From: Cyanobacteriota bacterium
Lineage (GTDB): Bacteria > Cyanobacteriota > Cyanobacteriia > PCC-6307 > Cyanobiaceae
Length of the DNA stretch: 64,000 nucleotides
NCBI GenBank assembly: GCA_046052125.1
Contig: JBJOMY010000001.1
Span: 726,431-790,430, forward strand
Direction: 5' to 3'
Part shown: positions 1,519-14,242 of the stretch, in pieces
Position numbering within the stretch: the first letter of the stretch is position 1
Layout of the letters: every line of letters starts with the position of its first letter
The notes under the pieces: model-generated
What the model was told of the DNA's origin: nothing
Database searches by the model: none
Seen by the model: only the letters and a program-made list of their open reading frames with translations
Program-made: the position numbers and the translations under genes

Positions 1519-2265
1519 ATGACTCCTGGTGAAATCTGCACCACCCTGCTCACCCACAAGCAACGGGTGGCAGAGGCGGCTCACGGGTGGACGGTGGTGA
1601 TTTGCAGCGCCGACAACGAACTCGTTGCCATGGCGGCCCTACTGGTGCCCCACTGCTCTCTGGCGGCGGGTTCCATTGCAGACCTGCTCGCCGGCTTGCC
1701 CGCGGGGAGCGAGCGATTGCTGGTGATCTGCGACGACGCGCTCCCCGATGGCGGTGCGACAGAGCTGATGGAGCAGCTGCGGGCGGCTCAGCCCCAAGCC
1801 ACCTGCCGCTTTCTGGCCTATCTCCCCAGGACCATGGCGCCCGAGAGGCTCGAGCAAATGCTCGCCCATGGCTGCGATGCAATCTGTTGCCGCAGCAGCG
1901 GCGGAACGGGCACGGTGCTCAGCACCTTGGTGCAGGCGCTCCACGGGCAGCAGAGCGTCGATGAAGTCTTTCGCCGGCGTCTGCGGCGCGGGTCTTGCGG
2001 CCATCGCCAGCCGCTGCTCAAGCCCGCTGAACAGGAGTTGGTGCTGCTCGTTGCTCGCGGGCACAAGGCACCGCAAATTGCGGCCCTGCGGCAGAGACGC
2101 TGCGACACCATCCGGCGTCAGCTGAGCGCCATCTACCGCAAGACCGGGGTGCGTGATCAACGCGGGCTGATCGCCTGGGCACTGGCCCATGGCGTGATCA
2201 GGCCACTGGATCTCGACTCAGGAATCCATCAAGCCAGGATCACTGAGATCAGGCAACGGCCTTAG
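1519..2265 (+). CDS. NarL/LuxR-family response regulator-like transcription factor
   Basis: Receiver-like LLVICDDALPDGG and C-terminal LuxR HTH (LKPAEQELVLLVARGHKAPQIA...TIRRQLSAIYRKTGV). ATG at 1519 chosen over TTG at 1417. Confidence 0.8.
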   Translation: MTPGEICTTLLTHKQRVAEAAHGWTVVICSADNELVAMAALLVPHCSLAAGSIADLLAGLPAGSERLLVICDDALPDGGATELMEQLRAAQPQATCRFLAYLPRTMAPERLEQMLAHGCDAICCRSSGGTGTVLSTLVQALHGQQSVDEVFRRRLRRGSCGHRQPLLKPAEQELVLLVARGHKAPQIAALRQRRCDTIRRQLSAIYRKTGVRDQRGLIAWALAHGVIRPLDLDSGIHQARITEIRQRP

Positions 2266-2274
2266 CGTGGAGTC

Positions 2275-2505
2275 ATGGATCTGCTTGATCGCATCACCGT
2301 CGACCCAGCCATCCGGTTTGGGAAGCCCTGCGTGCGGGGGACCCGACTCACGGTTGGTGATGTTCTGGGCACCCTGGCTGCCGGCTGCAGTGAGACCGAG
2401 CTGCTTGAGGACTTCCCACAGCTCAGCCATGAGGATGTGTTGGCTTGCATGGCCTTTGCCGCTGAACGTGAACGCACCTTGATGGTGTCCACGGGGGTGG
2501 GTTGA
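2275..2505 (+). CDS. DUF433-family antitoxin
   Basis: RITVDPAIRFGKPCVRGTRLTVGDVLGTLAAG..E.ELLEDFPQLSHEDVLACMAFAA is the typical DUF433 pattern. Confidence 0.92.
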   Translation: MDLLDRITVDPAIRFGKPCVRGTRLTVGDVLGTLAAGCSETELLEDFPQLSHEDVLACMAFAAERERTLMVSTGVG

Positions 2506-2852
2506 GCCTCAAGCTGCTTCTCGACGAGAACCTTTCTGAGCGTTTGCTTCCGCTGCTCAGCGAAGCGTTTCCAGATTCGAGCCACATCCGCTTACTCGGT
2601 CTCGGCGGTGTCGATGACCGCTCCGTCTGGGAGGAGGCCCGTGCTGGTGGCTATCTGCTGCTGACCAAGGACGACGATTTCCTTGGAATGAGCCTGAGCC
2701 TCGGCTGGCCACCAAAGGTGGTCTGTCTGGCCATTGGCAATGCCTCGAATGCAGCCACAGCCCGGCTGATCCTTTCAAGGCTGGAGGAGATTCGCTACTT
2801 CAACGACCATCCAGAAGCCGGCTTCCTCCTCCTCAAGCCAGCCTCTGGATGA
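2502..2852 (+). CDS. DUF5615-type PIN-like toxin
   Basis: KLLLDENLS, DD..VW..A, LLTKDDDF and PPKVV motifs. Overlaps the antitoxin stop by 4 nt. Confidence 0.9.
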   Translation: MSLKLLLDENLSERLLPLLSEAFPDSSHIRLLGLGGVDDRSVWEEARAGGYLLLTKDDDFLGMSLSLGWPPKVVCLAIGNASNAATARLILSRLEEIRYFNDHPEAGFLLLKPASG

Positions 2853-2885
2853 TCCAGTGTTGAACGCTGATCAGCGTCAATGGTT

Positions 2886-3341
2886 TCAGGCCGCCGCTCC
2901 TGAACGGTGCACTGCTGCTGAAACGGAAACCAACGCGTTCCGCCGCGGCAGATGGCAACAGGCACCGGAGCCAACCAACACATCACTGAGCCGCTTGGCC
3001 GCCAGGAGTGCATCGAGCTCGATGAGTTGCACCGCCTCGCGCTGACGCGGAAGCCAACCGGCGAGCAAGCCGCGATCACCCAGGGGCAGGGGTTTGGGTA
3101 GCTCGAGTCGTTGGCCGAGGAACGGCAACCAGCGCTCAACGCCATCGGCCTCACGCCACGGTTCAAAGCTGGCCACCTCCACCAGCTGCTTGAGCGTGGA
3201 CTCGCCGTAGCTGAGGGACGTCAAATACATCACGTCCTTGAGCTGTTCAGCCTCAAGGGCAAGGGGCATCCAGAAGCCGCGATCGGCGGCGTTCTCGATC
3301 GCATCACGGTGGTGATGGGTGAGCAGAACCTTGGTGGTCAT
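2886..3341 (-). CDS. Hypothetical protein (151 aa)
   Basis: ATG-started ORF with globular composition and host-like codon usage; no family recognised. Confidence 0.6.
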   Translation of the reverse strand: MTTKVLLTHHHRDAIENAADRGFWMPLALEAEQLKDVMYLTSLSYGESTLKQLVEVASFEPWREADGVERWLPFLGQRLELPKPLPLGDRGLLAGWLPRQREAVQLIELDALLAAKRLSDVLVGSGACCHLPRRNALVSVSAAVHRSGAAA

Positions 3342-3395
3342 GGCAGCGAGGAATCACTGCACCGGTTCTGGCTTTGCGGTCCTCAGTGACACCGC

Positions 3396-3455
3396 CCACA
3401 GGTGTGGCATCACCAGCGCCACAGACGTGGGATCCACAGGCCACAGGTGTGGCAT
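3396..3455. repeat. Three phased CCACA-N2-TGTGG palindromes (operator/iteron-like)
   Basis: CCACAGGTGTGG at 3396-3407, CCACAGACGTGG at 3419-3430 and CCACAGGTGTGG at 3441-3452 (spacing 23 and 22 bp). Confidence 0.75.
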
Positions 3456-3607
3456 GGCTGTCTCTGGTGGAACAACACCAGCCAGTCGGGATCGGTGATT
3501 CCACGCACAGCGGGGGGCCAGCGAGCAGCCATTCCGTCAGCCTTTCTTCCAGCCAGATCGCCCCAACCGCAGCCCCAGCACCACCGCAACGGGGGCCCTG
3601 CCCCCCT

Positions 3608-3638
3608 CGGAACCCTATGGGGCGTTGCTTGTTGTTCA
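3608..3638 (+). promoter_or_regulatory. Element motif A copy 1 (CGGAACCCTATGGGG...TTGTTCA)
   Basis: Near-identical copies at 4287 and 9295. Function is inferred only. Confidence 0.55.
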
Positions 3639-3798
3639 TGCCTGTTGAGTTCCGAGGTGCCGCCATTGGCGGGGTGATGGCACTGGTGGTGCAGGCGTGT
3701 GGGCCGACACCGCTCGGGGCGGTGGTGCGTGGGGCGTTGGTGCAGCCCATGCATGCCCGCCAATCCATTGCAGCGCAAGGAGTTCAAGGCAAGGCCAA

Positions 3799-3816
3799 TA
3801 GCCTCCCGCACCTGCA
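3799..3816 (+). repeat. Element motif B copy 1 (TAGCCTCCCGCACCTGCA)
   Basis: Identical 18-mer at 4330-4347. Lies 8 nt upstream of the ATG at 3825. Confidence 0.75.
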
Positions 3817-3824
3817 AACCACGC

Positions 3825-4265
3825 ATGCCCAAACGCTGTCTGCGCCGGCCGATGACCAGTGAGCAGCGGGCGTTTGCCTGCAAGCACCTGGGCCTGGCGC
3901 ATCAACAGGCGCACCGCTTTGCGCGCCGTTGGTCGATGGCCGTCGACGACCTGATTGGCCCCGCCTACGAGGGTCTTTGTAAGGGTGCGATTGGCTTTGA
4001 TCCCACGCTGGGGCATCGCCCCTCCAGCTATCTCGTCCCGAAGGTGAAAGGCGAGTTGCTGCACTACCTGCGCGACACGGGCTTCTCGCTGCGCATCAGC
4101 CACCGGCTGCGGGAGCTGTGGATCAAAGCGCGCCGATACGTCGCCCAGGGCCTCAGCGATCAGCAGATCGCCGATCAACTCCAAGTGCCCCTGGAGCGCT
4201 GGCTGGATTGTCGCCGCGCCTGCGGACAACGGCCGATTCCGCTGCATGAACTCCAGCGCGATTAA
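3825..4265 (+). CDS. Short SigF/SigB-like sigma-70 family protein (regions 2-3, no region 4)
   Basis: HLGLAHQQAHRF...DDLIGPAYEGLCKGAIGFDPTLGHRPSSYLVPKVKGELLHYLRD is group-3 region 2. LRISHRLRE...DQQIADQLQV is region 3. The protein ends after 146 aa. The start could be 3852. Confidence 0.8.
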   Translation: MPKRCLRRPMTSEQRAFACKHLGLAHQQAHRFARRWSMAVDDLIGPAYEGLCKGAIGFDPTLGHRPSSYLVPKVKGELLHYLRDTGFSLRISHRLRELWIKARRYVAQGLSDQQIADQLQVPLERWLDCRRACGQRPIPLHELQRD

Positions 4266-4286
4266 GCGCTGAGCTGCACACCACTC

Positions 4287-4347
4287 CGGAACCCTTTGGG
4301 GTCTCAGCAGCTTGTTCAACCACCCCCAGTAGCCTCCCGCACCTGCA
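4287..4347 (+). promoter_or_regulatory. Motif A copy 2 plus motif B copy 2 upstream of the phosphoesterase gene
   Basis: CGGAACCCTTTGGGG at 4287-4301, TTGTTCA at 4312-4318 and TAGCCTCCCGCACCTGCA at 4330-4347; ATG at 4355. Confidence 0.6.
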
Positions 4348-4354
4348 TCTCTCT

Positions 4355-5527
4355 ATGGGTTCAGCCAAACACCGCCACCAACCAGCCCGTCATCTCCCTG
4401 GACGGGGAGCACAACCGGCCAGCAACACTGATCAAGACCGCGAACTGCTGCAGTTCAACGTGCGCCTGGCCAAGGCACGTCAGGCCCAGGCCGACACCAA
4501 CCGGATTGAGCGCAAGGCCTTCCGCGAACACGCCCGCATCGAGAACGCCGTCACCGCCTACACCCGCGAGCTGTGCTCGCTTCTGGATGAACGGGGCTTT
4601 ACGCAAGGCGTGACGCTCTCCCGCATCCCGGACGGCGGGGATGCAGTGCTGATCGTGCAACTGAGCGATCTGCACTTCAACGAGCGGGTTGAACTGCCCT
4701 CCAACCGCTACGACTTCACCGTGGCCGCGCAGCGTCTGGCCAAGCTCGCCCAACGCGTCAAGCAACTGGGCCAGAGCTATGGCGCCCGCAAGGTGGTGGT
4801 GGCCTGCCTGGGGGATTTCCTCAACAGCGACCGGCGCCTCGATGAGCTGCTCTCCAACAGCACCAACCGTTCCAGAGCAACCCTGCTTGCCGTCGACATC
4901 CTGCGGGCGTTTCTGCTCGATCTACGCGAGCAGTTCGAGCTCGAGGTCTATGGCATCACCGGCAATGAAAGCCGCGTGAACAAAGAGCTGGGCTGGAGCG
5001 ATGAGCTCGCCACCGACAGCTACGACCTGATGATCTACGAGATCCTCAAGCGCGGCTTTGCCGGCACAGAAGGGATCAACTTCTGCGGCTTCCGGGCCAA
5101 TGAGCTCTTGTTTGAGGTGATGGGCCGCACCTTCCTCTGCCTGCACGGCCACCAGATCGGCGCGAACGTGCAGAAATCGGTGCAAGAGATCACCGGTAAG
5201 TACGCCGCCCAAGGCATCACGGTGGACTACACCCTGTTCGGCCACCTACACGCCAGCGCCATCGGCGACTACCACGCCCGCAATGCCTCGCTGGTGGGCA
5301 GCAACGCCTACTCAGAAGCAGGGCTGAACTTCTGCAGCAAGGCGGCGCAGAACATCCACATCGTGTCTGGCTCCAAGGGCACGGGCGCTATCGATGGCGT
5401 GAAGGTTGACCTCCAGGACATCAGCGGGATCGAGCCCTACCCCTTTGCCGCCGAATGGGAGGCCTACTGCCCCAAGAGCGAGCGCAAGCTCCACACCCCC
5501 TCTGTCGTTTACCAGGTTGTTGTCTGA
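4355..5527 (+). CDS. Calcineurin-like metallophosphoesterase (Mre11/SbcD/DP1-like, phage-type) with N-terminal coiled coil
   Basis: All five motifs are present: SDLH, LGD, GNE, LHGH and FGHLH. The N-terminal segment is helical (RLAKARQAQADTNRIERKAFREHARIENAV). Confidence 0.82.
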   Translation: MGSAKHRHQPARHLPGRGAQPASNTDQDRELLQFNVRLAKARQAQADTNRIERKAFREHARIENAVTAYTRELCSLLDERGFTQGVTLSRIPDGGDAVLIVQLSDLHFNERVELPSNRYDFTVAAQRLAKLAQRVKQLGQSYGARKVVVACLGDFLNSDRRLDELLSNSTNRSRATLLAVDILRAFLLDLREQFELEVYGITGNESRVNKELGWSDELATDSYDLMIYEILKRGFAGTEGINFCGFRANELLFEVMGRTFLCLHGHQIGANVQKSVQEITGKYAAQGITVDYTLFGHLHASAIGDYHARNASLVGSNAYSEAGLNFCSKAAQNIHIVSGSKGTGAIDGVKVDLQDISGIEPYPFAAEWEAYCPKSERKLHTPSVVYQVVV

Positions 5528-5907
5528 TGACTGTTTCCACTCCTTCCCGCACCTGCGCCTGCGCTAGGGGCGCCAGCGGCAACACGGCGCTTGAGCTGCA
5601 GAGCGCGCTGCTCCAGGCGATCACTGGGCTCACGCAACTGGTGAGTCAGCTCAGCCAACAGTTCCCGATCACCCAGCCGACTGCTCCTGCAGCAGAGCCC
5701 TGGATGGAGGAGCGCCCCAGCCAGGCAACCAAGCCGACATGCGTGCCCAACCTCTCAACCCTCTGGGATGAGCTGTCGGTGGTGGAACTGCGCTCGCTCT
5801 TGCGCAGCTATCCGATTGATCGCTCCTCCCTGCCAGCCCCGATCGAACTGCTGCGCCGCAGCGAGCTCATCGAAGCCCTCAACCAAATCCAAGCCCTCGG
5901 TGCTTAA
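5527..5907 (+). CDS. Hypothetical protein with C-terminal Rho_N/HeH-like helix pair
   Basis: TGATG coupling to the upstream gene. C-terminus DELSVVELRSLLRSY...LLRRSELIEAL resembles helix-extension-helix nucleic-acid-binding motifs. Confidence 0.55.
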   Translation: MTVSTPSRTCACARGASGNTALELQSALLQAITGLTQLVSQLSQQFPITQPTAPAAEPWMEERPSQATKPTCVPNLSTLWDELSVVELRSLLRSYPIDRSSLPAPIELLRRSELIEALNQIQALGA

Positions 5908-5960
5908 GGGGCGAAAGGCCCCTCGCGAATCAGACCCGTTCACCCATTCCACACACGCCT

Positions 5961-6437
5961 ATGACCACAACCCTCACCACCGCCAATCCCGCCGCTCTCG
6001 GCGAACCCATCCCCGGATCACCGGAAGCGCTGTTGCTCTTGGCCAACGCGGGAATACTGCCCGCCAGTGCCGGCGCCGACGATCCCCGCTTCTCAGCCGA
6101 CGCCATCACCACCTGCGTCACCCGACTGCTCGAGGTGAAACAGCAGAAGGAACTCCTGGCCAATGAACAGAAGGAACTGAACGAACAGCTGCGCCTGGCG
6201 CACTTACGCGGTGACCTGCTCACCCTGTTGCCAGCCGGCAAGGACGGCAACGGCTATCAGATCACCCCGGATCTCGTGCTCAACCGCCGCCCCGGCCGCA
6301 AGCAGTGGAGCTACTCGATCGACTGCAAAGAGATCGAATGCCAGCTCAAGGCACGCCAGAGCTATGAGCAGCAGAGCGGCCTCGCCAGCTACAGCCTCGG
6401 TGCAGCGTTCTGGGAGGTGCGGGCGAGCAAGGGCTGA
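5961..6437 (+). CDS. Hypothetical phage-like protein (coiled coil plus basic C-terminus)
   Basis: Clean ATG ORF with high GC3, followed by a terminator; no family securely recognised. Confidence 0.7.
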   Translation: MTTTLTTANPAALGEPIPGSPEALLLLANAGILPASAGADDPRFSADAITTCVTRLLEVKQQKELLANEQKELNEQLRLAHLRGDLLTLLPAGKDGNGYQITPDLVLNRRPGRKQWSYSIDCKEIECQLKARQSYEQQSGLASYSLGAAFWEVRASKG

Positions 6438-6463
6438 GTCCGCACATCACGGCGCAAGTGATC

Positions 6464-6495
6464 AAAAGCCCTGGGTTACGGCCCGGGGCTTTTTG
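6464..6495 (+). terminator. Rho-independent (probably bidirectional) terminator
   Basis: AAAAGCCCTGGGT-TACG-GCCCGGGGCTTTTT. Confidence 0.8.
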
Positions 6496-7010
6496 GCATC
6501 CAGTGTTCAGCTCCAATCAAAAACCCCCGAGCAGCGCCCGAGGGTCATTGGCTAATCACGTCGAATGAAGCGTTTGGTCTGGATCGAAGCTGCTGGCGTT
6601 GGCGCCTGGGGCCGAACGTTCCAGATGTGGGTTGGTTGGTTCTCCTGGGGCACCTATGGCGGTGCAAACGGAGTGTCGACGGTTCAGACGCACCATTCAG
6701 TGTCCGAACTGACGACCCGCCCACGGTTGGGTGAAGACTGTTGGAGCAGGGGCCTGCAGTCAGCTTGCTTCTGGCGGGTAGCGGGGTGGCGTGTCGTCCA
6801 TCTGGGCGCCTCCTTGGTTGATGGACACACCATCGCGCCGCCGCTGACGCCAGGCAATCGGGATTTACACGCATTGCCTTTGCAGCCAAGCGGGAGCAGG
6901 GTGGGTTGTTTGGTGCGTTCAGCGCAGGCAGCCGGATTTCGGGCTACACCCGTTGCCCCTCGCTCGCCACCCTGGAGGTTCATCTCTAGGTGCAGAAACC
7001 ACCCGGTTCC

Positions 7011-8099
7011 TCAGCTGGAGATGCGGAAGCCCTGCTTGAGCCATAGCGACACATACACCAAGGACACCAACACCGGCACCTCGATCAACGGGCCAATCAC
7101 ACCGGCCAGGGCCTGTTGGGAACTGATTCCCCAGATGCTGATACAGACAGCAATCGCCAGCTCAAAGTTATTGCCAGCTGCGGTGAAAGCCAAAGCGGAT
7201 GTGCGCGTGTAATCCAAGCCGCTTCTCTTGCCTAGGGCAAATGCGGTGCTCCACATGATCACGAAGTAGAGAAGCAGAGGCAAGGCCACCCGCAAAACCT
7301 GGCCTGGATTCGCAGTGATCGCCTTGCCCTGGAGAGCAAACATCACCACGATAGTGAAGAGCAAGCCGTATAAAGCGAAGGGAGCAATCCTGGGAATGAA
7401 TCGCTCTTCGTACCAGCGGATGCCTTTGGAACGTACGCCAATCTGACGGGTCAGGAACCCAGCCACCAGAGGAATCCCAAGAAAGACCAGTACGGCTTTT
7501 GCAATCTCCCAGAAGGAGAAGCTCAGAACTTGGCTTTCAAGCCCAAGCCAGCCAGGAAGCACCTGCAGATAGAAGGTGCCCAACAAGGCATAAATAAGGA
7601 CCTGCAGAATGGAATTAATCGCAACCAGCACTGCAGCCACTTCACGGTTTCCCTTGGCCAGATCAATCCAGATCAGCACCATCGCAATGCAAGGCGCAAT
7701 ACCAATCAGGATCAATCCAGTCCGAAAGGCAGGTTGATCTGGAAGGAACAACCAAGCCAAAGCGAACATCAACAGTGGCCCCAACCCCCAAACCAACCCA
7801 AGGGCCAGCTTCAGCAGGCGGGGATCACGGGCAGCGTGGCCCAGTTCGCCGTAGCGCACTTTGGCCAGCACTGGATACATCATCAACAACAAACCGATGG
7901 CGATCGGCAAAGAGGTGTGATCCACCTGCACCGCAGTGAGCGCAGCCTGTATGCCAGGCACCAGCCGTCCGAGCAGGAGACCACTGGCCATCGCCAACAG
8001 GATCCAGAGCGGTAGGAGCCGATCGAGCACAGGCAGCGAGGCCAACACAGTGGCCTCTTTGGACGACGGCTGCGCTGAGTGGAGAGCGTCGTCTCTCAT
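7011..8099 (-). CDS. acr3: Acr3-family arsenite efflux transporter
   Basis: LDRLLPLWILLAM, GLLLMMYPVLAKV, GIAPCIAMVLIW, AAGNNFELAIAV and GPLIEVPVL motifs. The ATG at 8099 overlaps the upstream stop (ATGA). Confidence 0.93.
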   Translation of the reverse strand: MRDDALHSAQPSSKEATVLASLPVLDRLLPLWILLAMASGLLLGRLVPGIQAALTAVQVDHTSLPIAIGLLLMMYPVLAKVRYGELGHAARDPRLLKLALGLVWGLGPLLMFALAWLFLPDQPAFRTGLILIGIAPCIAMVLIWIDLAKGNREVAAVLVAINSILQVLIYALLGTFYLQVLPGWLGLESQVLSFSFWEIAKAVLVFLGIPLVAGFLTRQIGVRSKGIRWYEERFIPRIAPFALYGLLFTIVVMFALQGKAITANPGQVLRVALPLLLYFVIMWSTAFALGKRSGLDYTRTSALAFTAAGNNFELAIAVCISIWGISSQQALAGVIGPLIEVPVLVSLVYVSLWLKQGFRISS

Positions 8100-8809
8100 G
8101 GCATGTGGGGCGCTGCGATTTGTAGTCGGGCCTCCGTTCCGTCGGGGCCTAGGCAGCAAGGCAGATGCCCTGTCTTCACCCAGATCGTGCAACCCGGTTC
8201 ACTGCAAGGTCGATGCACACTGCCCGGTGGATTGCGCAGCCAGCTGCCAGCGGGATAGGTGCCGTGCTCGTCCTGGAACACACCAGACAACACATAAATC
8301 TCCTCGCCGCTTGGATGGCTGTGGGGCTGAAACACCGTGCCAGGCGCCCAGCGCACCAGCGCCACGTGCTCCGAGCCGTAGCCGTGTAGGGGCATGACCT
8401 CGAGCCCATTCACAAGCCCAGGAACCCAAACACCGGAGCTGGTATCGATCACCAGCCGCTGCTGATCTCCCGGGTGCATCTGATACAGCTTCACCAGAAT
8501 CGTGCAGCCAGCCTTGCTGAACGGGGTATGGCTCGATCCCACCGGATTACGCAGGTAGCTGCCGGCGGGGTAGTCCCCGTGCTCATCCGAGAACGTGCCC
8601 TCGAGAACAAGGATTTCTTCTCCACCGGGATGGCCATGGGGCTCGAAGTGACTGCCGGGGGCGTAGCGCACGATTGAGGTGGCACGGGCCACCTCTTCCC
8701 CGCGGCGATCCAGAAGGCGGCGTTCCACGCCAGCCATTGGTGAGGGCTGCCAGGCCAAAGCATGGGTGTCGAGCACCACGCGTTCGCTGAGGTCGGCATG
8801 CAGGTCCAT
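8096..8809 (-). CDS. ChrR-like double cupin protein (anti-ECF-sigma factor-like)
   Basis: MDLHADLSERVVLDT..., ARATSIVRYAPGS.F..H.H.GGEEILVLEGTFSDEHGDYPAGSYLRNP, with the motif repeated in the C-terminal half. Confidence 0.88.
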   Translation of the reverse strand: MDLHADLSERVVLDTHALAWQPSPMAGVERRLLDRRGEEVARATSIVRYAPGSHFEPHGHPGGEEILVLEGTFSDEHGDYPAGSYLRNPVGSSHTPFSKAGCTILVKLYQMHPGDQQRLVIDTSSGVWVPGLVNGLEVMPLHGYGSEHVALVRWAPGTVFQPHSHPSGEEIYVLSGVFQDEHGTYPAGSWLRNPPGSVHRPCSEPGCTIWVKTGHLPCCLGPDGTEARLQIAAPHMP

Positions 8810-8823
8810 TCAGCTGATTCTGA

Positions 8824-9102
8824 TCAGCTCACTTCCGGCGCCCAGCCCCGTTGGCGGACCATGTCATCCGTCCAGCCCTGACAGCGCCTGACCAGATGCT
8901 CACCCTGGGCAATCAGTCCGTGGTGAAGCTGGCAGGTGAGCAAAGGGATGCAGTCAGCACCGGGGTGGTACCTGAACCAATGGCAGGTCATGCAGACCTT
9001 GCGGCTGCGACTGGGACGCAGCACGTCCTCATCCAGATAGGGCCAGGCTTCGCAGTCGCTGCCTGCAGCCACTGAGGTGGCCCGGATTCGAGAAGCAGTC
9101 AT
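8824..9102 (-). CDS. Small Cys/His-rich picocyanobacterial protein (CMTC...CQLH...C, C-terminal GWAPE)
   Basis: 92-aa ORF from ATG 9102 with an AGGGG SD. The CxxC plus C/H residues suggest metal binding. Confidence 0.7.
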   Translation of the reverse strand: MTASRIRATSVAAGSDCEAWPYLDEDVLRPSRSRKVCMTCHWFRYHPGADCIPLLTCQLHHGLIAQGEHLVRRCQGWTDDMVRQRGWAPEVS

Positions 9103-9115
9103 CAACCCCTCTATG

Positions 9116-9130
9116 CATACACTTGTACTA
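9116..9130. promoter_or_regulatory. Candidate LexA (SOS) box
   Basis: CATACACTTGTACTA has a perfect TGTACT half and a degenerate other half relative to the cyanobacterial AGTAC-N4-GTACT consensus. It lies about 14 nt upstream of the 9102 start. Confidence 0.5.
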
Positions 9131-9191
9131 GCAGGGATTGGCTGGGTTGGCGCGGGTCGTGCTGATCGGTTCCGGATTCCTCCAACAAAGG

Positions 9192-9223
9192 AGCCCCGGG
9201 CCATGGGCGCCCGGGGCTTTTTG
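9192..9223 (+). terminator. Rho-independent terminator
   Basis: AGCCCCGGGC-N7-GCCCGGGGCT followed by TTTT. Confidence 0.75.
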
Positions 9224-9294
9224 AGCCAGTGGGTTGTTGGTCTCCCACCGCCTCTTGGTCATGGCTCAGGTCTGCGGCGGAGCGCAAGGCCTGT

Positions 9295-9309
9295 CGGAAC
9301 TCTTTGGGG
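9295..9309 (+). promoter_or_regulatory. Motif A copy 3 (CGGAACTCTTTGGGG)
   Basis: Matches the copies at 3608 and 4287; followed by TTGTTCAAC at 9326. Confidence 0.55.
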
Positions 9310-9325
9310 CCTTTCCCCATGTCCT

Positions 9326-9649
9326 TTGTTCAACTCTTTTCCGCGCTTCTTCTCCTGGCTGCGCTCGTTGCTGCAGCGACCTCAGACCTGCTCCAGCAGC
9401 GAGCTCGGGCCCTTTGAGCTCGACCACGCCTTTGCTGCCTTTGAGCAGGGTGATTGGTTGGCAGAACTGGACCTCCTGCAACTGGGTGTTGCCCTGCAGC
9501 GCGGCGCCATCGCCCGCGGCGGCTACGACGGCCGCTCCTTTGACCTGATGGTCGCCATCGCCGATGTCCTGCAAAGCGATCACGGCTGGAGCTTTGAGCA
9601 GTCCGATGCCTGGCTCGAGCGCATGGGGCTCTGGGAGGAGGAGTTCTGA
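9326..9649 (+). CDS. Hypothetical acidic protein (~107 aa, TTG start)
   Basis: The frame from TTG 9326 (FNSFPRFFSWLRSLL...LERMGLWEEEF) has strong GC3 bias. The start is uncertain. Confidence 0.6.
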   Translation: MFNSFPRFFSWLRSLLQRPQTCSSSELGPFELDHAFAAFEQGDWLAELDLLQLGVALQRGAIARGGYDGRSFDLMVAIADVLQSDHGWSFEQSDAWLERMGLWEEEF

Positions 9650-9719
9650 GGGTTCAGGCCACCGCCGGTAGCCTCCCTCGCGGCCAAGTCCGGTCGCAGC
9701 GTCGTCTGCCTGGCTGCCG

Positions 9720-9917
9720 ATGAGTGAACACCTCTGGCTGACCACTGCCGAGCTCTGCTCCCATCTGGCTATCAGCCGCTCCACGCTGTTTGCCATTCGC
9801 CGCTCGGGCCTGCTCAAGGACGGGCGGCATCTGGTGGCCAAGAACCCAACCAGCGCTCGCTCGCACCTGCTCTGGCACCGTCAGCGCTGTGAGTTGGCCC
9901 TCGGGAGGATCAGCTGA
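9720..9917 (+). CDS. Excisionase/AlpA-MerR-like HTH protein 1
   Basis: WLTTAELCSHLAISRSTL...RR.G.LK.GRH is a small basic winged-HTH next to the integrase. Confidence 0.78.
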   Translation: MSEHLWLTTAELCSHLAISRSTLFAIRRSGLLKDGRHLVAKNPTSARSHLLWHRQRCELALGRIS

Positions 9918-10135
9918 TGGCTTCCATCGGCAGCTCCAACAGCGCCTGGGTCACCACCAGCGAGCTCTGCGCTGCCCTTGCCATCAGCCGCTCCAAGCTC
10001 TGCCGTCTGCAACAGCGCAAGGTGTTCCGCCAAGGGCTGCACTGGGTGCGCAAAAACCCAACCGCGGCACGTTCCGATCAGCTCTGGAGCCTGGAGGCGT
10101 GTCGTTCACTGCTTGAGAATCAACACCGTTTCTAG
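9917..10135 (+). CDS. Excisionase/AlpA-MerR-like HTH protein 2 (paralog of 9720-9917)
   Basis: WVTTSELCAALAISRSKL...GLHWVRKNPTAARS aligns with protein 1; TGATG coupling. Confidence 0.78.
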   Translation: MASIGSSNSAWVTTSELCAALAISRSKLCRLQQRKVFRQGLHWVRKNPTAARSDQLWSLEACRSLLENQHRF

Positions 10136-10165
10136 AGGCTCCTCCTCCGCCACCAACAAGCCATC

Positions 10166-10192
10166 AAAAAAAGGGGGCCTCAGGCCCCCTTT
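10166..10192 (-). terminator. Terminator between convergent xis-like genes and integrase
   Basis: AAAAAAA-GGGGGCC-TCA-GGCCCCC-TTT, which gives a U7 tail on the minus strand. Confidence 0.85.
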
Positions 10193-10216
10193 CTGCTGTC
10201 CGCTATCCGTTCAGGG

Positions 10217-11584
10217 CTAGGCACCCGCCCCGGGTTCAGGGAGCATCCGACGCGCCAGGGAGGCCTTGGTTTGCTCCTCCGTGATCTCGCTCAGGTACGT
10301 GCGCCGGTGTACCTCCGGGCTATGGCCCATCACCGCTGCCACATCCGCGTAGTTCCAGGTTGTGGTTTCCCGAGCCCGAATCGCGTAGGCGTGGCGCAGG
10401 TCATAAGGCACGCAGCGCTCCTTGCGTTTCTGCGCTTTCTTCTTGCCCTGGGCTGGCGCTGTTTCTACCCAGGCATACAGCTTGGTCTTGAGTTCAAACT
10501 CCGCCTTGGCATCGGAGCTGCGCAACTTGTGGCAGCACACCGCGCCCAGGCGTTCGTTGTTATCGCAGCGCTTCACGAGGTCACGCTCGGGATCAAAGGG
10601 CTGGCCCTCCTCATTCACGAACTTGGGCACGTAGCGGCTGCGCAGCTGCTCGAGCCGTTGCTCCCCATTCACACCGCCCAGCTGGTAGCGCTCCACCCAT
10701 TCGGCAGGCAGCGGTAGTGCGACGCGGAAACCAGTCTTCGTGACCTTGATGTGGCGGGCCGCCACGCTGATGCTCACCATCCCCTGCTCATCGGGGAGTT
10801 CAGCGATATGCCACACCTCATGGGGCCTGAGCCCATAGGTGGCCACCATCGCGAACACCCACCCCCAGAGCGGGTCCTCGTCCATCACCTGATCCAGCCA
10901 CTCCTGAATTGCTGCGGTGCTCGGAATACGGCGCCTGGATTCACCCGCCGAAAGGAGCGCCACCTTCTTCTTATTGACCATTCCCTTGAGCTCCTCGCTC
11001 AGGCTCTCCGGTGCAATCGCCCCGTAGCCGGCCCGCCGGAGCAACGACACCACCTCCCGCTTCTGGCGGAACCCCTGGCGGTGGGTGGCCATCGGCAGCA
11101 GCGTGGCCGTTGCGTCCTCCAGCCGTGCCTTGAGGCTTTCGCTGGTATGCAACGCAAAGCGGCGCACATCCTCCTCAGTAGCCGGGCGATCCGCCGGCAG
11201 CAGACAGAAGTAGCCCTTGCCTTTGAACGGACCCACCAGGTTCATGTTCACCCCCTGGGCTCGCTGGAACGCCACCACGGCGGCGCAGATGGCAGGCCAG
11301 CAAGGGTTGTTTGCGTTGGCGGCGTCGAGGTCTTCCTGGCCGTCGGGGAGAACAGCGGGCTTGCCACTGCGGGTCGCCTCGATCAGCAGGTCCTGGAGGT
11401 TTTCGATCGCCTCTGGGTCAGCGGCTGCATAGCCCTTGATGGTGTGCTCGCGGGTTTTGCCACCCTCGCCGAGCTGGTACACCGTGATCCATGGGCTGCG
11501 GCGGTGCTCCCGCAGCCGGTATCGGGCGCCGAAGGCGCGCAGCACGGCATTACAGCGCTGCATGGGGCTCTGAATCGTGGCCAT
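10217..11584 (-). CDS. Tyrosine recombinase / phage-type integrase
   Basis: Catalytic motifs YGLRPHE (R), TKTG (K), YDLRHAYA (xxLRH) and MGHSPEVHRRTY (H, Y). Adjacent to the tRNA 3' end. Confidence 0.92.
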   Translation of the reverse strand: MATIQSPMQRCNAVLRAFGARYRLREHRRSPWITVYQLGEGGKTREHTIKGYAAADPEAIENLQDLLIEATRSGKPAVLPDGQEDLDAANANNPCWPAICAAVVAFQRAQGVNMNLVGPFKGKGYFCLLPADRPATEEDVRRFALHTSESLKARLEDATATLLPMATHRQGFRQKREVVSLLRRAGYGAIAPESLSEELKGMVNKKKVALLSAGESRRRIPSTAAIQEWLDQVMDEDPLWGWVFAMVATYGLRPHEVWHIAELPDEQGMVSISVAARHIKVTKTGFRVALPLPAEWVERYQLGGVNGEQRLEQLRSRYVPKFVNEEGQPFDPERDLVKRCDNNERLGAVCCHKLRSSDAKAEFELKTKLYAWVETAPAQGKKKAQKRKERCVPYDLRHAYAIRARETTTWNYADVAAVMGHSPEVHRRTYLSEITEEQTKASLARRMLPEPGAGA

Positions 11585-11817
11585 GGGGAACGCATCTCTG
11601 GATGGAGTGTTCCCACCGATCCGGACCCAGAACCCCAACCAATCTCACGCGGTGAGACGAGCCGGATTCCTTGGGACTTGTCCCAAGGAAATGACACAAC
11701 TACGGTTTTCGGCGATCTCCCCCGGACTCATTCCGCCCGGGGGAAACCGCCTTCTGAAACCCTGAGAACCCTTGCGTTGCAGGGTAAAACCCTTGCAGTC
11801 CAAGCGATCTCAAAACA

Positions 11818-11889
11818 TGGGTCGTCTGAGATTCGAACTCAGGACCAATCGGTTAAAAGCCGAGTGCTCTACCGCTGAGCTAACGACCC
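11818..11889 (-). tRNA. trnK: tRNA-Lys (anticodon UUU)
   Basis: Reverse complement GGGTCGTTAGCTCAGCGGTAGAGCACTCGGCTTTTAACCGATTGGTCCTGAGTTCGAATCTCAGACGACCCA folds as a full cloverleaf with a TTT anticodon and TTCGAAT T-loop. Confidence 0.97.
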
Positions 11890-12005
11890 GCCCGGTACCT
11901 GGAAATCCAAGCGCGGGGGTGGCCCTTGCGGGCACCCAGTGAACGTATCACCCAGAGGGTCCCGCCTCCAACCGCGCCGAGAATGGCTGGAGCGCACCCC
12001 CAGCC

Positions 12006-12533
12006 ATGCCTGTTACGCCCTGGCCCCAGCCTTCCGTGCACCCGGATGCCTGGGTGGCTGATTCAGCGGTGTTGATCGGCGACGTGCGCCTGGCGGCCGG
12101 GGCGAGTGTCTGGCCCACTGCAGTGGCCCGCGGCGATGTGTGCAGCATCGAGATCGGCGAGGGCAGCAACGTGCAAGACGGCGCAGTGCTCCACGGCGAC
12201 CCGGGCCAGCCGGTGCGGATCGGGGCCGACGTGACCATCGGACACCGGGCCGTGGTGCATGGCGCCACCCTGGAAGACGGCTGCCTGATCGGGATCGGGG
12301 CCGTGGTGCTCAACGGCGTCACCGTGGGGGCCGGAGCGCTGGTGGCCGCAGGAGCGGTGGTGACCAAAAACGTGGCGCCTCGCGCCCTGGTGATGGGGGC
12401 CCCGGCCCAGCTCAAGCGTGAGCTCAGCCCTGAGCAAGCCGAGGAGCAGCGGCAACACGCCCGCCGCTACCGCCAGCTGGCCATGGCCCACGCCGGCCGC
12501 TCGAGCGATCTGGGCTTCCACGCAGCCAGCTGA
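12006..12533 (+). CDS. Gamma carbonic anhydrase family protein
   Basis: Hexapeptide repeats, [12 protein letters not shown] and [10 protein letters not shown]. Confidence 0.92.
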
Positions 12534-12625
12534 ATTGCTGCGAATTCAGTCGATTGCCGGCCCTAGCCGCTGCGCTTGGCGCGTGGCCCGTAGGATCAGC
12601 ACACGCTTCGACACATTTCCCAGCC

Positions 12626-12748
12626 ATGGATGCACGGCTTCTGCTTGTAGTCACCCCGGTTCTTCTGGCCGCCGGCTGGGCCGTGTTCAACATCGGCCGC
12701 GCTGCCGTGGGCCAGCTGCAGCTGATGCTCAAGCGCGCCAACGGCTGA
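12626..12748 (+). CDS. psbY: Photosystem II protein Y
   Basis: MDARLLLVVTPVLLAAGWAVFNIGRAAVGQLQ. Confidence 0.92.
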   Translation: MDARLLLVVTPVLLAAGWAVFNIGRAAVGQLQLMLKRANG

Positions 12749-12773
12749 TCGGCTTCGAGCCCGTTTGAATCCC

Positions 12774-12802
12774 AGAGCCTCCGCTGCGGCGGGGGCTTTG
12801 TT
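12774..12802 (+). terminator. Rho-independent terminator after psbY
   Basis: AGAGCCTCCGC-TGCG-GCGGGGGCTTTGTT. Confidence 0.7.
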
Positions 12803-12862
12803 GTGTCGAGCCACCAAGGGCGCCCCGTAGGGTGAAACCTCGGAGCAGATCGGGGCCCCACG

Positions 12863-14242
12863 GTGCAGACACACAGCCCAACCACCCCAAACGAGGTGCT
12901 GGTGATCGGTGCCGGCCTGGCGGGCACTGAGGCGGCCTGGCAGATCGCCGCAGCCGGCGTACCGGTGCGCCTGGTGGAGATGCGCCCCGTGCGCCGATCA
13001 CCCGCCCACCACAGCAGTGAATTTGCCGAGCTGGTGTGCAGTAACAGCTTCGGGGCGCTAAGCAGCGACCGCGCCGCGGGCCTGTTGCAGGAGGAGCTGC
13101 GCCGCCTCGGTTCCCTGGTGATCGGCACCGCCGACCGCCACGCCGTACCCGCCGGTGGCGCCCTGGCGGTGGACCGCGGCCGCTACAGCGCCGCCCTCAC
13201 CGAAGCGCTCGAGCAGCACCCGCTGGTGACGGTGGAGCGCCGCGAGCAGACCGAGCTGCCTGGCCCCGAGCAGATCACGGTGCTGGCCACCGGTCCGCTC
13301 ACCAGTGAGCCACTGGCCGATCAGCTGCGCGCCTTCACCGGCCGGGCCGATTGCCACTTCTTTGATGCCGCAAGCCCGATCGTGGAGGGCGAGAGCATCG
13401 ATCTCTCGGTGGCCTTCCGCGCCTCCCGCTACGACAAGGGCGACGCCGACTACATCAACTGCCCGATGAACAAGGAGCAGTTCCTCGCCTTCCGCGAGGC
13501 GTTGCTGGCGGCCGAGCAGGCCGAGCTCAAGGATTTCGAAAAGGAGAACGCCACCTTCTTCGAGGGCTGCCTGCCAATTGAGGAGCTCGCCCGCCGCGGC
13601 GAAGACACGATGCGCTACGGCCCGCTCAAGCCGATCGGCCTCTGGGATCCCCGCTGGGGCGATGTGAACGACCGCGACGTGCGCCGCGCCAACCGCGCCT
13701 ATGCCGTGGTGCAACTGCGCCAGGAAGACAAGGACGGCCGTCTCTGGAACCTGGTGGGCTTCCAGACCAACCTCAAATGGGGGGAGCAGAAGCGCGTGCT
13801 GCGGATGATCCCAGGGCTGGAGAACGCCGAGTTCGTGCGCTTCGGGGTGATGCACCGCAACACCTTCCTGGAGGCCCCGCAGCTGCTCGATCCCACCCTG
13901 CAGTTCCGCCAGAGGCCCTCCCTGCTCGCCGCCGGCCAGATCACCGGTACCGAGGGCTACGCGGCGGCGGTGGCTGGCGGCTGGCTGGCTGGCACCAACG
14001 CCGCCAGGCTGGCCCTCGGCCATGAACCGCTGCAGCTGCCCGCCACCTCAATGATCGGCGCTCTCACCCACTTCATCGCCGAAGCCCCGAGCGAGAAGTT
14101 TCAGCCGATGCCGCCGAACTTCGGCCTTTTGCCCGAACTGCCCGAGCGGATCCGCGACAAGCGCCGCCGCTACGGGGCTTACCGCGATCGGGCCTTGGAG
14201 GATCTGGCGCCCTTCTGCGCAGCACTGGCGGTCGCCGCCTGA
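12863..14242 (+). CDS. trmFO: tRNA (uracil-5-)-methyltransferase TrmFO (Gid)
   Basis: [40 protein letters not shown] and FQPMPPNFG. Confidence 0.96.

Follow-up and report, generated by a model that had tools for sequence, protein, structure and literature searches.

How is an arsenite exporter controlled once it has been parted from the regulator that usually accompanies it? The question is raised by an acr3 gene in the 2.64-Mb cyanobacterial genome studied here (G000), which a preliminary description of the DNA placed behind a small Cys-rich gene and a ChrR-like cupin gene. All coordinates refer to the window, the 64-kb stretch of DNA that was analyzed, except those prefixed C1 or C4, which denote contigs of the same genome. 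The favored reading, given a probability of roughly 0.6 on sequence comparison, is that of an island-borne acr3 within a LexA-box unit, which would be induced by DNA damage rather than by the sensing of arsenic. No paper linking the genes of this unit was found in the literature.

The gene order proposed earlier can be read directly from the sequence. On the minus strand, from 5' to 3', the Cys-rich gene is followed after a 14-nt gap (8810-8823) by the cupin gene, whose TGA stop codon (8098-8096) overlaps the ATG of acr3 (8099-8097) as ATGA (Table 1). An alternative, longer ORF for the Cys-rich gene (8824-9204) would cross the conserved hairpin that separates it from a divergent gene. The inverted repeat forming this hairpin is terminator-like on both strands.

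Table 1. Features of the acr3 locus and the surrounding island, in window coordinates
Feature	Position	Strand	Remarks
Sigma-70-like gene	3699-4265	+	phrog_36098, Sigma70_r2
Exonuclease-like gene	4355-5527	+	phrog_284 exonuclease, E 1.1e-52
Two backbone ORFs	5455-5907, 5961-6437	+	No assigned family
Conserved island backbone (whole)	3699-6437	+	Convergent on the unit; same gene set in paralog islands 2 and 4
RNA-like non-coding element, ~400 nt, conserved	6514-6925	-	Closes the unit; terminator hairpin and T-run at 6519-6546
acr3, arsenite efflux permease, 362 aa	7011-8099	-	TIGR00832 equivalog and Pfam SBF
Bicupin, 237 aa	8096-8809	-	Two ChrR-type cupin domains; Cupin_7 in two stretches
Capture junction	8100-8126	-	No DNA homology to either cupin or acr3 loci
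Small Cys-rich gene, 92 aa	8824-9102	-	First gene of the unit; multicopy picocyanobacterial family
LexA-type box TAGTACAAGTGTATGC	9115-9130	-	12 nt 5' of the Cys-rich ATG
Inverted repeat, GC-rich, 10 pairs	9192-9218	.	Between the Cys-rich gene and the divergent ~100-aa gene; kept in paralog copies 1-4
Divergent conserved island gene, ~100 aa	9326-9649	+	Start uncertain: TTG at 9326 or 9368
Excisionase-like HTH gene	9720-9917	+	phrog_2907 excisionase, E 8.9e-4; HTH_17, E 1.1e-3, below cut-off
Integrase-like gene, 473 aa	10217-11638	-	Faces into the island; adjoins the tRNA
tRNA-Lys(UUU)	11818-11889	-	Island integration site; adjoins the integrase-like gene

The acr3 product matches TIGR00832 at 413.3 bits (cut-off 282.8) over model positions 2-326 of 327 and Pfam SBF at E 5.6e-51. 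The ORF is uninterrupted and of full length, and the gene is present as a single copy in the whole genome. Mutagenesis of Acr3 has pointed to a Cys of a central transmembrane helix, needed for catalysis, and to a conserved Glu close to the C terminus; candidates for these residues lie within ...GIAPCIAMV... and ...GPLIEVPV... of the translation. Distribution of the gene is patchy, with acr3 in 72 of 201 family genomes and in two of the seven other genomes of the same genus. The preliminary description found acr3 to be visibly AT-rich at third codon positions. This is true, but the contrast is smaller than described: acr3 has a GC3 of 0.675, the cupin gene 0.706 and the Cys-rich gene 0.720, versus 0.80-0.81 for the backbone genes of the island, and when all 1883 crude ORFs of the genome with 150 aa or more are ranked (mean 0.788, sd 0.064) the three genes fall at the 5th, 9th and 12th percentiles. 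Overall GC of acr3 is 0.563, and the dip lies mostly at codon positions 1 and 2 (0.59 and 0.42), as expected for a membrane protein.

The closest relatives of this acr3 are Cyanobium/Prochlorococcaceae records with 77-86% identity, and the next best after this type are actinobacterial (61-69%). A transfer from Actinomycetota is disfavored and a capture inside the clade is the more straightforward explanation, because the closest relatives are cyanobacterial and reside in native ars clusters. Normally acr3 belongs to ArsR-controlled ars operons, and the closest cyanobacterial relatives keep an arsR/GAPDH/arsJ context from which the acr3 studied here has been separated. Among 15 cyanobacterial-type acr3 loci, eight have GAPDH and MFS genes divergent from acr3, five have arsR directly upstream and one has the order arsR-arsP-thioredoxin-acr3. 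Cyanobacterial clusters of this kind, with arsR-acr3, divergent GAPDH (gap3) and arsJ (MFS), and often pstS, are described in a published account (PMC4284471). The present acr3 belongs to the same ACR3 family and has its closest relatives in clusters of this type, and its genome retains the arsR/GAPDH/arsJ half; it differs in having neither arsR nor the palindrome described below and in lying behind a cupin gene and a LexA-type box on a mobile island.

The reported absence of arsR and arsC holds locally, but it does not extend to an ArsR-type regulator elsewhere in the genome. While the window has no HTH_5 match, four are found outside it, and an ArsR/SmtB regulator (NF033788, 98 bits) is encoded 237 kb away at C1:498088-498489. 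The genome keeps arsR with the ArsJ-associated GAPDH (554 bits) and ArsJ (590 bits), and acr3 is missing from that locus. The genome yielded no canonical arsC; TIGR02691 reaches only 19.5 bits, and the one PF03960 member, at 41 bits against TIGR00014 (cut-off 106), fits TIGR01617 'arsC_related'. A missing neighboring arsR is not diagnostic, because arsBHC of Synechocystis is regulated by an unlinked arsR (PMC4284471). More telling is the loss of an operator-like palindrome. ATCAAC-N4-GTTGAT, inferred from conservation alone to be an ArsR operator, occurs in the intergenic regions of nine of nine such relatives and in the arsR/GAPDH region of this genome, and the 64-kb window has no match to it at up to three mismatches. 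A GTTGAT half-site at 9106-9101 overlies the Cys-rich start codon; its left half is mismatched, it was not noticed at this place in the other paralogs and, as an ArsR operator, it was taken as chance. The second genomic copy of the full palindrome (C4:238631) lies inside an ABC-ATPase ORF and was also taken as chance.

The earlier claim that acr3 was captured is upheld by its place on a tRNA-Lys island, its separation from arsR/GAPDH/arsJ and its junction with the 3' end of the cupin gene. DNA homology to cupin loci stops at 8126-8160, homology to acr3 loci begins at or below 8062, and at most 27 nt of non-cupin DNA precedes the acr3 ATG. Ten of 18 complete cupin orthologs are 227 aa long and end in a ...GPDGSEA-type sequence; the cupin gene here is 10 codons longer. 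Adjacency of cupin and acr3 was found at none of 80 acr3 loci and in none of 200 other family genomes, and the arrangement of all three genes in no other sampled genome, which may mean that it is young and that selection has yet to shape it. Pairs of the Cys-rich and cupin genes do occur elsewhere, directly adjacent at locus L132 and with a DUF1651 gene between them at L114. Because the pair is also found in other genera, it appears older than the joining of acr3; the pair would have come first, and acr3 would later have been attached to the cupin 3' end. Since acr3 would have brought along no more than 27 nt from upstream of its start codon, it would thereby have lost both arsR and the operator-like palindrome.

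A rival explanation is that acr3 still responds to arsenic, either through the unlinked ArsR acting in trans on a diverged operator or through an As(III)-responsive promoter inside the cupin gene. The ArsR/SmtB regulator is there to act, the Synechocystis system provides a documented precedent, and promoters could be hidden, since the scan for promoters does not work in this organism. These points are countered by the lack of the palindrome shared by the relatives and by the genome's own arsR promoter, and by the mere 27 nt or so of non-cupin DNA available to hold an operator. Cupin orthologs without acr3 share the coding sequence, so an internal arsenic promoter would have to be fortuitous, and we consider continued arsenic control unlikely.

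The cupin itself had suggested redox control by way of its likeness to ChrR, a suggestion for which closer comparison gives no support. The protein matches Pfam Cupin_7 (PF12973, 'ChrR cupin-like domain') in two stretches at 233.9 bits (E 1.8e-70), and its translation contains the His/Glu metal motifs HGHPGGEE and HSHPSGEE, as in a Cupin_7 bicupin. It aligns over its whole length with PDB 3o14, a 223-aa protein deposited as 'Anti-ECFsigma factor, ChrR' (chain A, residues 1-219, 193.5 bits). Its match to true ChrR (2q1z, 2z2s), in contrast, is through one cupin domain alone at 25 bits. Against TIGR02451, the profile of the ChrR anti-sigma-E factor, it scores 53.5 bits, below the cut-off of 124.5, and matches only the cupin part at model positions 109-190. 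Two cupin domains make up the protein, which lacks an anti-sigma domain.

The first gene of the unit belongs to a family with seven copies in this genome, matches in 167 of 201 family genomes and 450 representatives (50% clustering, E<=0.001). Cysteines C37, C40, C57 and C74 are each at least 90% conserved and are spaced C-x2-C-x16-C-x16-C, which may resemble the spacing of the four cluster-binding Cys of [4Fe-4S] HiPIPs. The protein has no match in Pfam, NCBIfam or PHROG, the family profile has none among PDB sequences at E<=10, and in the ESM Atlas it meets only its own clusters, which are unnamed or misnamed 'galactose oxidase'. An AlphaFold model built with 35 close homologs was unusable (pLDDT 47.7); with 57 diverse sequences the pLDDT rose to 72.3, and a Foldseek search with this model returned nothing at E<=0.001. 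Its best structural matches, far below significance, are small subunits of benzylsuccinate synthase (Z 2.8 and 2.6) and HiPIPs (Z 2.1 and 2.0). An identity with SYNW1659 was rejected. SYNW1659 ('DUF3387') and SYNW1658 (DUF1651) form a phage-responsive operon (PMC5490813); the forward primer for SYNW1659, searched in 401 family genomes, has an exact match in genome G322, where the published primer pair frames an unrelated gene on the opposite strand. A Cys-rich homolog with a GGTACAGGTGTATT box lies ~1.1 kb away within that locus.

The LexA-like box reported 5' of the first gene is present. Within it, the 14-mer AGTACAAGTGTATG (9129-9116, 13 nt before the ATG) agrees at 11 of 14 positions with the published cyanobacterial LexA consensus, the 14-bp palindrome AGTACWNWTGTACT (PMC3091678). 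The right half-site is GTAT rather than GTAC, as it also is in the box of lexA itself. The genome encodes LexA (178.2 bits, cut-off 110.95), and its lexA promoter carries GGTACAAATGTATT 34 nt before the ATG, identical to the published lexA boxes of marine picocyanobacteria. The promoter of recA (TIGR02012, 535 bits) carries CGTACGCCTGTACT, the complement of which is one base off the boxes of Cys-rich paralogs 2 and 4. A box precedes all seven Cys-rich paralogs of the genome. Of the 12 loci taken from other genomes (L003-L013 and L024), 10 have it as well and the remaining two carry one-base variants. Information content peaks at GCTAGTAC-N4-GTAC with unconserved flanks (15 of 19 rows used, 14 of them distinct). 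Over the whole genome the loose pattern RGTAC-N4-GTAY shows no enrichment (20 sites versus 29-43 in five shuffles), so the case for a LexA box rests on position and conservation, not on counts. Judged by these, the box is not a chance occurrence. That it was acquired for the sake of acr3 is not supported; it is part of the promoter of a multicopy Cys-rich gene family. As for SOS control, the motif evidence stands, with a box conserved across paralogs and genera that matches the lexA and recA operators, and motifs are the extent of the support.

The box could instead be the operator of another regulator, for example the Cys-rich protein, or the unit could be constitutive, with the likeness to LexA sites arising by mimicry or coincidence. 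The boxes of the Cys-rich family share a conserved extension, GCTAGTAC...GTACGCAT, that is lacking at lexA and recA, and islands account for about half of the genome's strong boxes. The core 14-mer is nearly identical to the recA operator of the same genome, however, and fits the cyanobacterial LexA consensus, the LexA protein scores above its cut-off, and mobile elements commonly make use of host LexA; both alternatives seem improbable. Known examples of resistance or cargo genes on mobile elements under LexA include qnrB and the integron integrases, which resemble the present case in placing such functions under the host SOS repressor on mobile DNA and differ in organism, gene and element type; here the regulation is a prediction. 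With LexA as the preferred regulator, the probable inducer of acr3 is DNA damage and not arsenic.

The cyanobacterial LexA (SOS) regulon (Li et al. 2010, PMC3091678; Tetu et al. 2013, PMC3744912) uses the same operator type, and the lexA and recA operators of this genome equal the published ones. The published regulon is centered on repair genes, whereas the operator here heads a multicopy island family and a metalloid pump. When marine Synechococcus is treated with mitomycin C, recA, lexA and umuC are induced, and genomic islands are over-represented among the locations of the induced genes (PMC3744912).

Cotranscription of the three genes, as proposed, is supported by their anatomy: the 14-nt gap, the ATGA overlap, the short junction and the absence of any strong hairpin between 9102 and 7011, where three short, weak terminator-like sites all lie inside acr3. 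A promoter scan, uninformative for this organism, gave no sigma-70-like promoter in 6700-9700, box included. Both junctions are covered in RNA libraries, the one between cupin and acr3 by metatranscriptome contigs X1 record 4 (7956-8272) and X4 record 16 (8053-8262), and that between the Cys-rich and cupin genes by X1 record 6 (8463-8886); these contigs come from relatives ~95% identical to the window and could be carried-over DNA, and a contig spanning two genes does not prove one transcript. The RNA runs cover at most 0.13 of the stretch, and parts without contigs are uninformative. It is very improbable that acr3 is a silent or decaying passenger, with arsenic defense left to the ArsJ/GAPDH arsenate pathway alone, as its patchy distribution and the missing canonical arsC, which would leave little As(III) made inside the cell, might suggest, given a full-length frame whose score greatly exceeds the equivalog cut-off, coverage of most of the gene by RNA-library contigs from near-identical relatives and a GC3 partly ameliorated towards that of its operon mates.

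The wider setting is that of an integrated element. A 46-bp repeat of the 3' half of the tRNA-Lys gene is found 46.5 kb away at C1:691727-691772 with 97.8% identity, followed by another integrase-like ORF, and a 102-bp repeat with 91% identity lies at C1:619290-619391; Rfam models at the gathering threshold match only the tRNA over positions 1-13000. The 473-aa ORF has no match in Pfam, PHROG or PDB sequences, its nearest ESM Atlas clusters are cyanobacterial site-specific integrases (XisAC, Phage_integrase; score 0.98), and a 474-aa homolog adjoins tRNA-Met in paralog island 4. The divergent ~100-aa gene has no family match, but homologs of it are found as ORFs next to paralog copies 2 and 4 and at locus L003. 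The acr3 and bicupin genes are cargo of a tycheposon-like island integrated at tRNA-Lys.

Tycheposons, integrative elements that carry cargo in Prochlorococcus islands (bioRxiv 10.1101/2020.12.28.424599), share with the present island integration next to a tRNA gene, a partial-tRNA repeat, an inward-facing integrase-like gene, an xis-like gene, niche-adaptive cargo and tandem islands. They differ in that tRNA-Lys is not among the seven tRNAs given in the preprint, and in that the integrase-like ORF here has no Pfam match. The words LexA, SOS, DUF1651 and arsen* are absent from the preprint, in which neither a LexA-boxed Cys-rich module nor a ~400-nt element is described.

Comparison of the paralogous copies points to a recurring arrangement. 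The ~400-nt element occurs in at least five copies in this genome and gives BLAST matches in 112 of 201 family genomes; it has no Rfam match at E<=1, and RNAalifold predicts 90 pairs from its alignment, seven of them with compensatory changes. It lies downstream on the same strand in Cys-rich copies 1-4. A DUF1651 gene follows the Cys-rich gene in copies 2, 4, 5 and 6, and the same module pair is seen at L003 and L114; in the unit studied here there is no DUF1651 and the cupin gene follows instead. Locus L003, from the same genus, has flanks homologous to window positions 9156-8824 and 6904-6514, between which a DUF1651 gene and two RHH genes take the place of cupin and acr3. On this sequence comparison the module is a LexA-type box, the Cys-rich gene, usually DUF1651, and the ~400-nt element, with cupin and acr3 filling its variable slot. 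A bolder proposal, tentative and given rather less than even odds, is that the Cys-rich gene, the optional DUF1651 and the ~400-nt element form an undescribed SOS-controlled island module that expresses whatever cargo its slot contains, and that the element represents a new widespread family of noncoding RNA. Were this so, the copy of the element at C4:331523-331973 would be driven directly by a LexA box, and damage signals would switch on island cargo, here the cupin and the sole arsenite pump of the genome.

In the mechanism proposed for the unit, LexA would repress a promoter at the box, and RecA-stimulated cleavage of LexA upon DNA damage would induce it. The three genes would be made as one transcript from this promoter, the ATGA overlap would couple translation of acr3 to that of cupin, and transcription would end at the terminator of the ~400-nt RNA-like element. 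Arsenite export would then follow the SOS state of the cell plus a basal leak and not the sensing of As(III) by ArsR.

Picocyanobacteria are major primary producers, and much about the regulation of the flexible genes in their tRNA-linked islands is poorly understood. If the favored reading is true, an island has turned a housekeeping-type resistance gene into damage-inducible cargo, which would have lost its own sensor and gained a ready-made LexA unit, at the core of which would stand the Cys-rich protein and the ~400-nt RNA-like element. It would also provide a sequence-level reason for the preferential induction of islands by DNA-damaging agents in marine Synechococcus (PMC3744912). As to arsenic biology, the prediction is that arsenite efflux in this strain ignores arsenic.

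The first gene of the unit encodes a Cys-rich protein, the second a bicupin and the third ACR3. Direct reading of the sequence bore out the gene order, the gap and the ATGA overlap claimed in the preliminary description, with the acr3 start ATG lying on the TGA stop of the cupin ORF. The transporter is an ordinary ACR3, matching TIGR00832 (equivalog) at 413.3 bits (cut-off 282.8) over model positions 2–326 of 327, and a whole-genome search found it single-copy in the genome under study (G000; 2.64 Mb, ~65% GC, 10 contigs). The window spans C1:726431–790430 of that genome, and picocyanobacteria of Cyanobium/Prochlorococcaceae type gave the best matches among public records. The bicupin has two Cupin_7 ("ChrR cupin-like") domains and aligns full-length with PDB 3o14_A at 193.5 bits. 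It lacks the anti-sigma domain, as TIGR02451 matched the cupin part only (53.5 bits versus a cut-off of 124.5), and the redox/ChrR control once proposed for the unit is not supported. GC3 is 0.675 in acr3, 0.706 in the cupin gene, and 0.720 in the Cys-rich gene. For acr3, to which AT-rich third positions had been ascribed, this value is low for the genome (5th percentile among 1883 crude ORFs, mean 0.788), yet only slightly below those of its two operon neighbours.

Features of the locus and of related sites in G000 (C1, C3 and C4 are its contigs; other positions are in the window)
Feature	Position	Strand	Remark
LexA-type box TAGTACAAGTGTATGC	9130-9115	minus	read from sequence
Cys-rich ORF, 92 aa	8824-9102	minus	read from sequence
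Gap between Cys-rich and cupin ORFs, 14 nt		minus	read from sequence
Cupin ORF, 237 aa	8096-8809	minus	read from sequence
acr3 ORF, 362 aa	7011-8099	minus	read from sequence
Conserved ~400-nt element	6514-6925	minus	same strand as Cys-rich gene, further 3'
Further element copies	C4:331523-331923, C3:43793-44220, C1:151436-151880, C1:177581-177804
tRNA-Lys(UUU)	11818-11889		right of the unit
Integrase-like ORF, 473 aa			beside tRNA-Lys, facing into island
Excisionase-like HTH ORF			right of the unit
Native ars locus	C1:498088-500788		ArsR/SmtB regulator, ArsJ-associated GAPDH, ArsJ
Cargo, island 2 (Cys-rich copy 2)			LigB dioxygenase, pirin, CDGSH protein, HxlR
Cargo, island 4 (Cys-rich copy 4)			alanine-racemase-like gene, DUF1611
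Cargo beside Cys-rich copy 3			Kelch-repeat protein

The box upstream of the first gene, earlier noted as LexA-like, is real, and it is a property of the Cys-rich gene family, not of acr3. All seven Cys-rich copies in G000 have TAGT(A/G)C-N4-GTA(C/T) 30–80 nt upstream, and the 12 loci from other genomes show the strict pattern (10) or one-base variants (2) within differing flanking sequence. An information-content profile of Cys-rich promoters peaks at GCTAGTAC-N4-GTAC (15 of 19 rows, 14 distinct; four were dropped because the 73-nt frame overran the extracted segment). The lexA gene of G000 (TIGR00498, 178.2 bits) has GGTACAAATGTATT 34 nt 5' of its ATG, and recA (TIGR02012, 535.4 bits) has CGTACGCCTGTACT ~148 nt upstream; both are letter-identical to boxes that Li et al. 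2010 tabulate (their Table 1) for marine picocyanobacteria, with AGTACWNWTGTACT as the LexA-box consensus (PMC3091678). Once complemented, the recA box is a single base away from those of paralogs 2 and 4. The putative operator appears to be the known cyanobacterial LexA box.

The case for the box does not follow from simple enrichment, the loose pattern RGTAC-N4-GTAY occurring 20 times in G000 versus 29–43 times in five shuffles; what stands out is site placement. Sites fall in six Cys-rich promoters, the lexA and recA promoters, and three identical YAcAr/SLOG-family gene promoters with a TACAAT hexamer just 3' of the box, and at C4:331960, immediately upstream of a copy of the RNA-like element. 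The YAcAr/SLOG promoters (C1:162241, C1:714407, C3:29930, minus strand) lie beyond the window, within islands or close to them; their three near-identical sequences read TAGTACG(C/T)CCGTACTGATACAAT, in which a −10-like hexamer accompanies a LexA-type box, ahead of a product of 162–184 aa (PF10686, 37 bits). These genes make up a second island-associated family with an SOS-type operator. RGTAC-N4-GTAY has fewer hits in G000 than in the shuffles; words containing GTAC may be avoided across the genome, with a restriction system as one potential cause.

The Cys-rich protein had no match in Pfam, NCBIfam or PHROG. The family was found in 167 of 201 sampled family genomes (58 of 64 genera), with 450 representatives at E ≤ 0.001 in a 50%-clustered protein library, and C37, C40, C57, and C74 are conserved at ≥90%. 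An AlphaFold model from a diverse alignment predicts a small beta-rich fold (pLDDT 72.3, pTM 0.59), for which Foldseek returned no structure at E ≤ 0.001. VIA-align gave no significant match; benzylsuccinate synthase small subunits scored best (Z 2.8, 2.6), ahead of HiPIPs (Z 2.1, 2.0), and a HiPIP-like Fe–S or metal site is no more than a lead. The NCBI name "galactose oxidase" borne by family members was unsupported by every scan run.

The view that acr3 was captured is supported by a homology junction, an island slot, and a departure from the native ars context. DNA homology to a same-genus genome (loci L003 and L004) covers 9156–8824 (promoter and Cys-rich gene) and again 6904–6514 (the element); between these flanks, L003 carries DUF1651 and two ribbon-helix-helix genes in place of cupin and acr3. 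A DUF1651 gene 3' of the Cys-rich gene (copies 2, 4, 5, and 6) is the usual arrangement within the islands, and DUF1651 genes are reported to respond to phage infection (PMC5490813). The cupin is present in 63 of 201 family genomes and acr3 in 72. A synteny search, suggested at the outset, found cupin–acr3 adjacency in none of the 200 other family genomes (contigs and coordinates compared by eye). Among 19 cupin loci fetched with 1.5-kb flanks, none had acr3; single loci showed the Cys-rich gene directly before the cupin, with homology extending through the intergenic spacer (L132), Cys-rich–DUF1651–cupin (L114), and DUF1651–cupin (L124). Conversely, none of 80 acr3 loci had the cupin; at one (L024) a Cys-rich gene lay 2.3 kb upstream, beyond intervening genes on the opposite strand. 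Ten of 18 complete cupin orthologs are 227 aa long with a ...GPDG(S/T)EA-type end; that of G000 runs 10 codons further, into the acr3 ATG. Cupin homology stops at 8126–8160 and acr3 homology starts at or below 8062, limits that imply that acr3 brought along at most ~27 nt of its upstream sequence. By protein identity, it is closest to Cyanobium/Prochlorococcaceae records (77–86%), then to Actinomycetota (61–69%).

The native context was sampled at 15 cyanobacterial-type acr3 loci (61 of 123 called ORFs scanned). GAPDH and MFS genes were divergent from acr3 at eight, arsR lay immediately 5' of it at five, and one had arsR–arsP–thioredoxin–acr3. G000 keeps the ArsJ-associated GAPDH (554 bits, cut-off 450) and ArsJ (590.2 bits, cut-off 400), and 3' of its arsR is an opposite-strand AdoMet decarboxylase gene, not acr3; it seems that G000 lost its native acr3 and kept the island copy. 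The claim that the exporter is without arsR and arsC holds locally: an ArsR/SmtB regulator persists elsewhere in the genome, and no canonical arsC was found in G000. The palindrome ATCAAC-N4-GTTGAT occurs in the arsR/GAPDH/acr3 intergenic region of 9/9 relatives tested and of G000, where its sole other copy is inside an ORF; the 64-kb window has zero matches at up to 3 mismatches. No acr3 severed from its ArsR context and wired into a LexA-boxed unit was found described in the literature consulted. At C1:497622-498489, outside the window, the AdoMet decarboxylase occupies acr3's usual post-arsR place, with pstS-like genes adjoining.

The element closing the unit has at least five copies in G000; of the 201 family genomes, BLAST matched it in 112, from 44 of 64 genera, and several copies per genome are common. 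It ends in a strong hairpin and T-run (6519–6546). Some blocks are the same in each of six aligned copies and show no codon-like pattern. RNAalifold predicts 90 pairs, and compensatory changes affect 7, including 4 within a single helix; a search of Rfam gave nothing at E ≤ 1. The element is apparently non-coding and structured, although a tiny ORF comes after its conserved AAGGAGG-ATG. When the coordinates from two family-wide searches were compared by eye, a Cys-rich gene preceded the element by 0.3–1.9 kb, in the same orientation, at no fewer than 11 sites in eight genomes (G069, G168 in three places, G185, G193, G113, G085, G139 in two, and G049). The C4 copy has a LexA-type box, AGTACACCTGTACT, ~45 nt upstream with no protein gene in between.

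The island is tycheposon-like. Its tRNA linkage, shared backbone, and differing cargo fit the published description, whereas tRNA-Lys is not one of the seven target tRNAs in that preprint, and the words LexA, SOS, DUF1651, and arsen* are absent from its text (bioRxiv 10.1101/2020.12.28.424599). The 473-aa ORF had no family match in scans, but the ESM-Atlas clusters closest to it are site-specific integrases of cyanobacteria. The tRNA-Lys 3' half is repeated over 46 bp at C1:691727-691772, 46.5 kb off and beside another integrase-like ORF, and a second repeat (102 bp) lies 119 kb distant, which suggests tandem islands. Outside the window, at C1:691594-691607, a perfect palindrome, TCTGTACCTAGGTACAGA, lies next to the distal partial-tRNA repeat and an integrase-like ORF of 511 aa; it may serve the adjacent island in recombination or regulation. 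The backbone of the acr3 island recurs in paralog islands 2 and 4, with a phrog_284 exonuclease-like gene, a gene for a sigma-70-like protein, two ORFs of unknown function, and, adjoining tRNA-Met, an integrase-like gene of 474 aa. The short sigma-70-like protein (188 aa, 3699–4265, plus strand; Sigma70_r2; phrog_36098, E 4e-31) may direct island gene transcription. A GC-rich inverted repeat of 10 pairs (9192–9218), conserved in four paralog islands, separates the divergent Cys-rich gene and a conserved ~100-aa gene, yet resembles a two-strand terminator. In L029 (CANEWU010000129.1, Synechococcaceae, 926–4645), acr3 adjoins the alanine-racemase-like and DUF1611 pair of island 4, so more than one arrangement may carry acr3 together with island cargo.

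RNA evidence comes from four metatranscriptome runs holding parts of the stretch, in contigs 90–99% identical to the window and thus from relatives, not the strain itself. The cupin/acr3 junction is bridged by X1 record 4 (7956–8272) and X4 record 16 (8053–8262), extending >31 nt on either side, and the Cys-rich/cupin junction by X1 record 6 (8463–8886); other X1 contigs diverge precisely at 8824–8830, the cargo slot boundary. These contigs show that environmental relatives share the arrangement and that it turns up in RNA libraries; they fall short of proving a single transcript, and carried-over DNA may be their source.

The more novel leads from this locus are the Cys-rich module, which is multicopy, LexA-boxed and provided with a cargo slot, and the ~400-nt RNA-like element; neither was found described in the literature consulted. 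For acr3, the best-supported reading is one LexA-controlled transcription unit; capture and probable co-transcription survive from the original interpretation, with SOS control suggested by the motif. Mitomycin C treatment of marine Synechococcus induces recA, lexA, and umuC, with a preference for island genes (PMC3744912). Sequence comparison establishes the gene order, the junction, the departure from the ArsR context, and the conservation of the box. LexA would bind here and make the unit inducible, with transcription starting at a promoter near 9115–9130, running through the Cys-rich gene, cupin, and acr3, and ending at the terminator of the RNA-like element. Translation of acr3 would be coupled to that of the cupin, and arsenite export would depend on the SOS state, not on ArsR.
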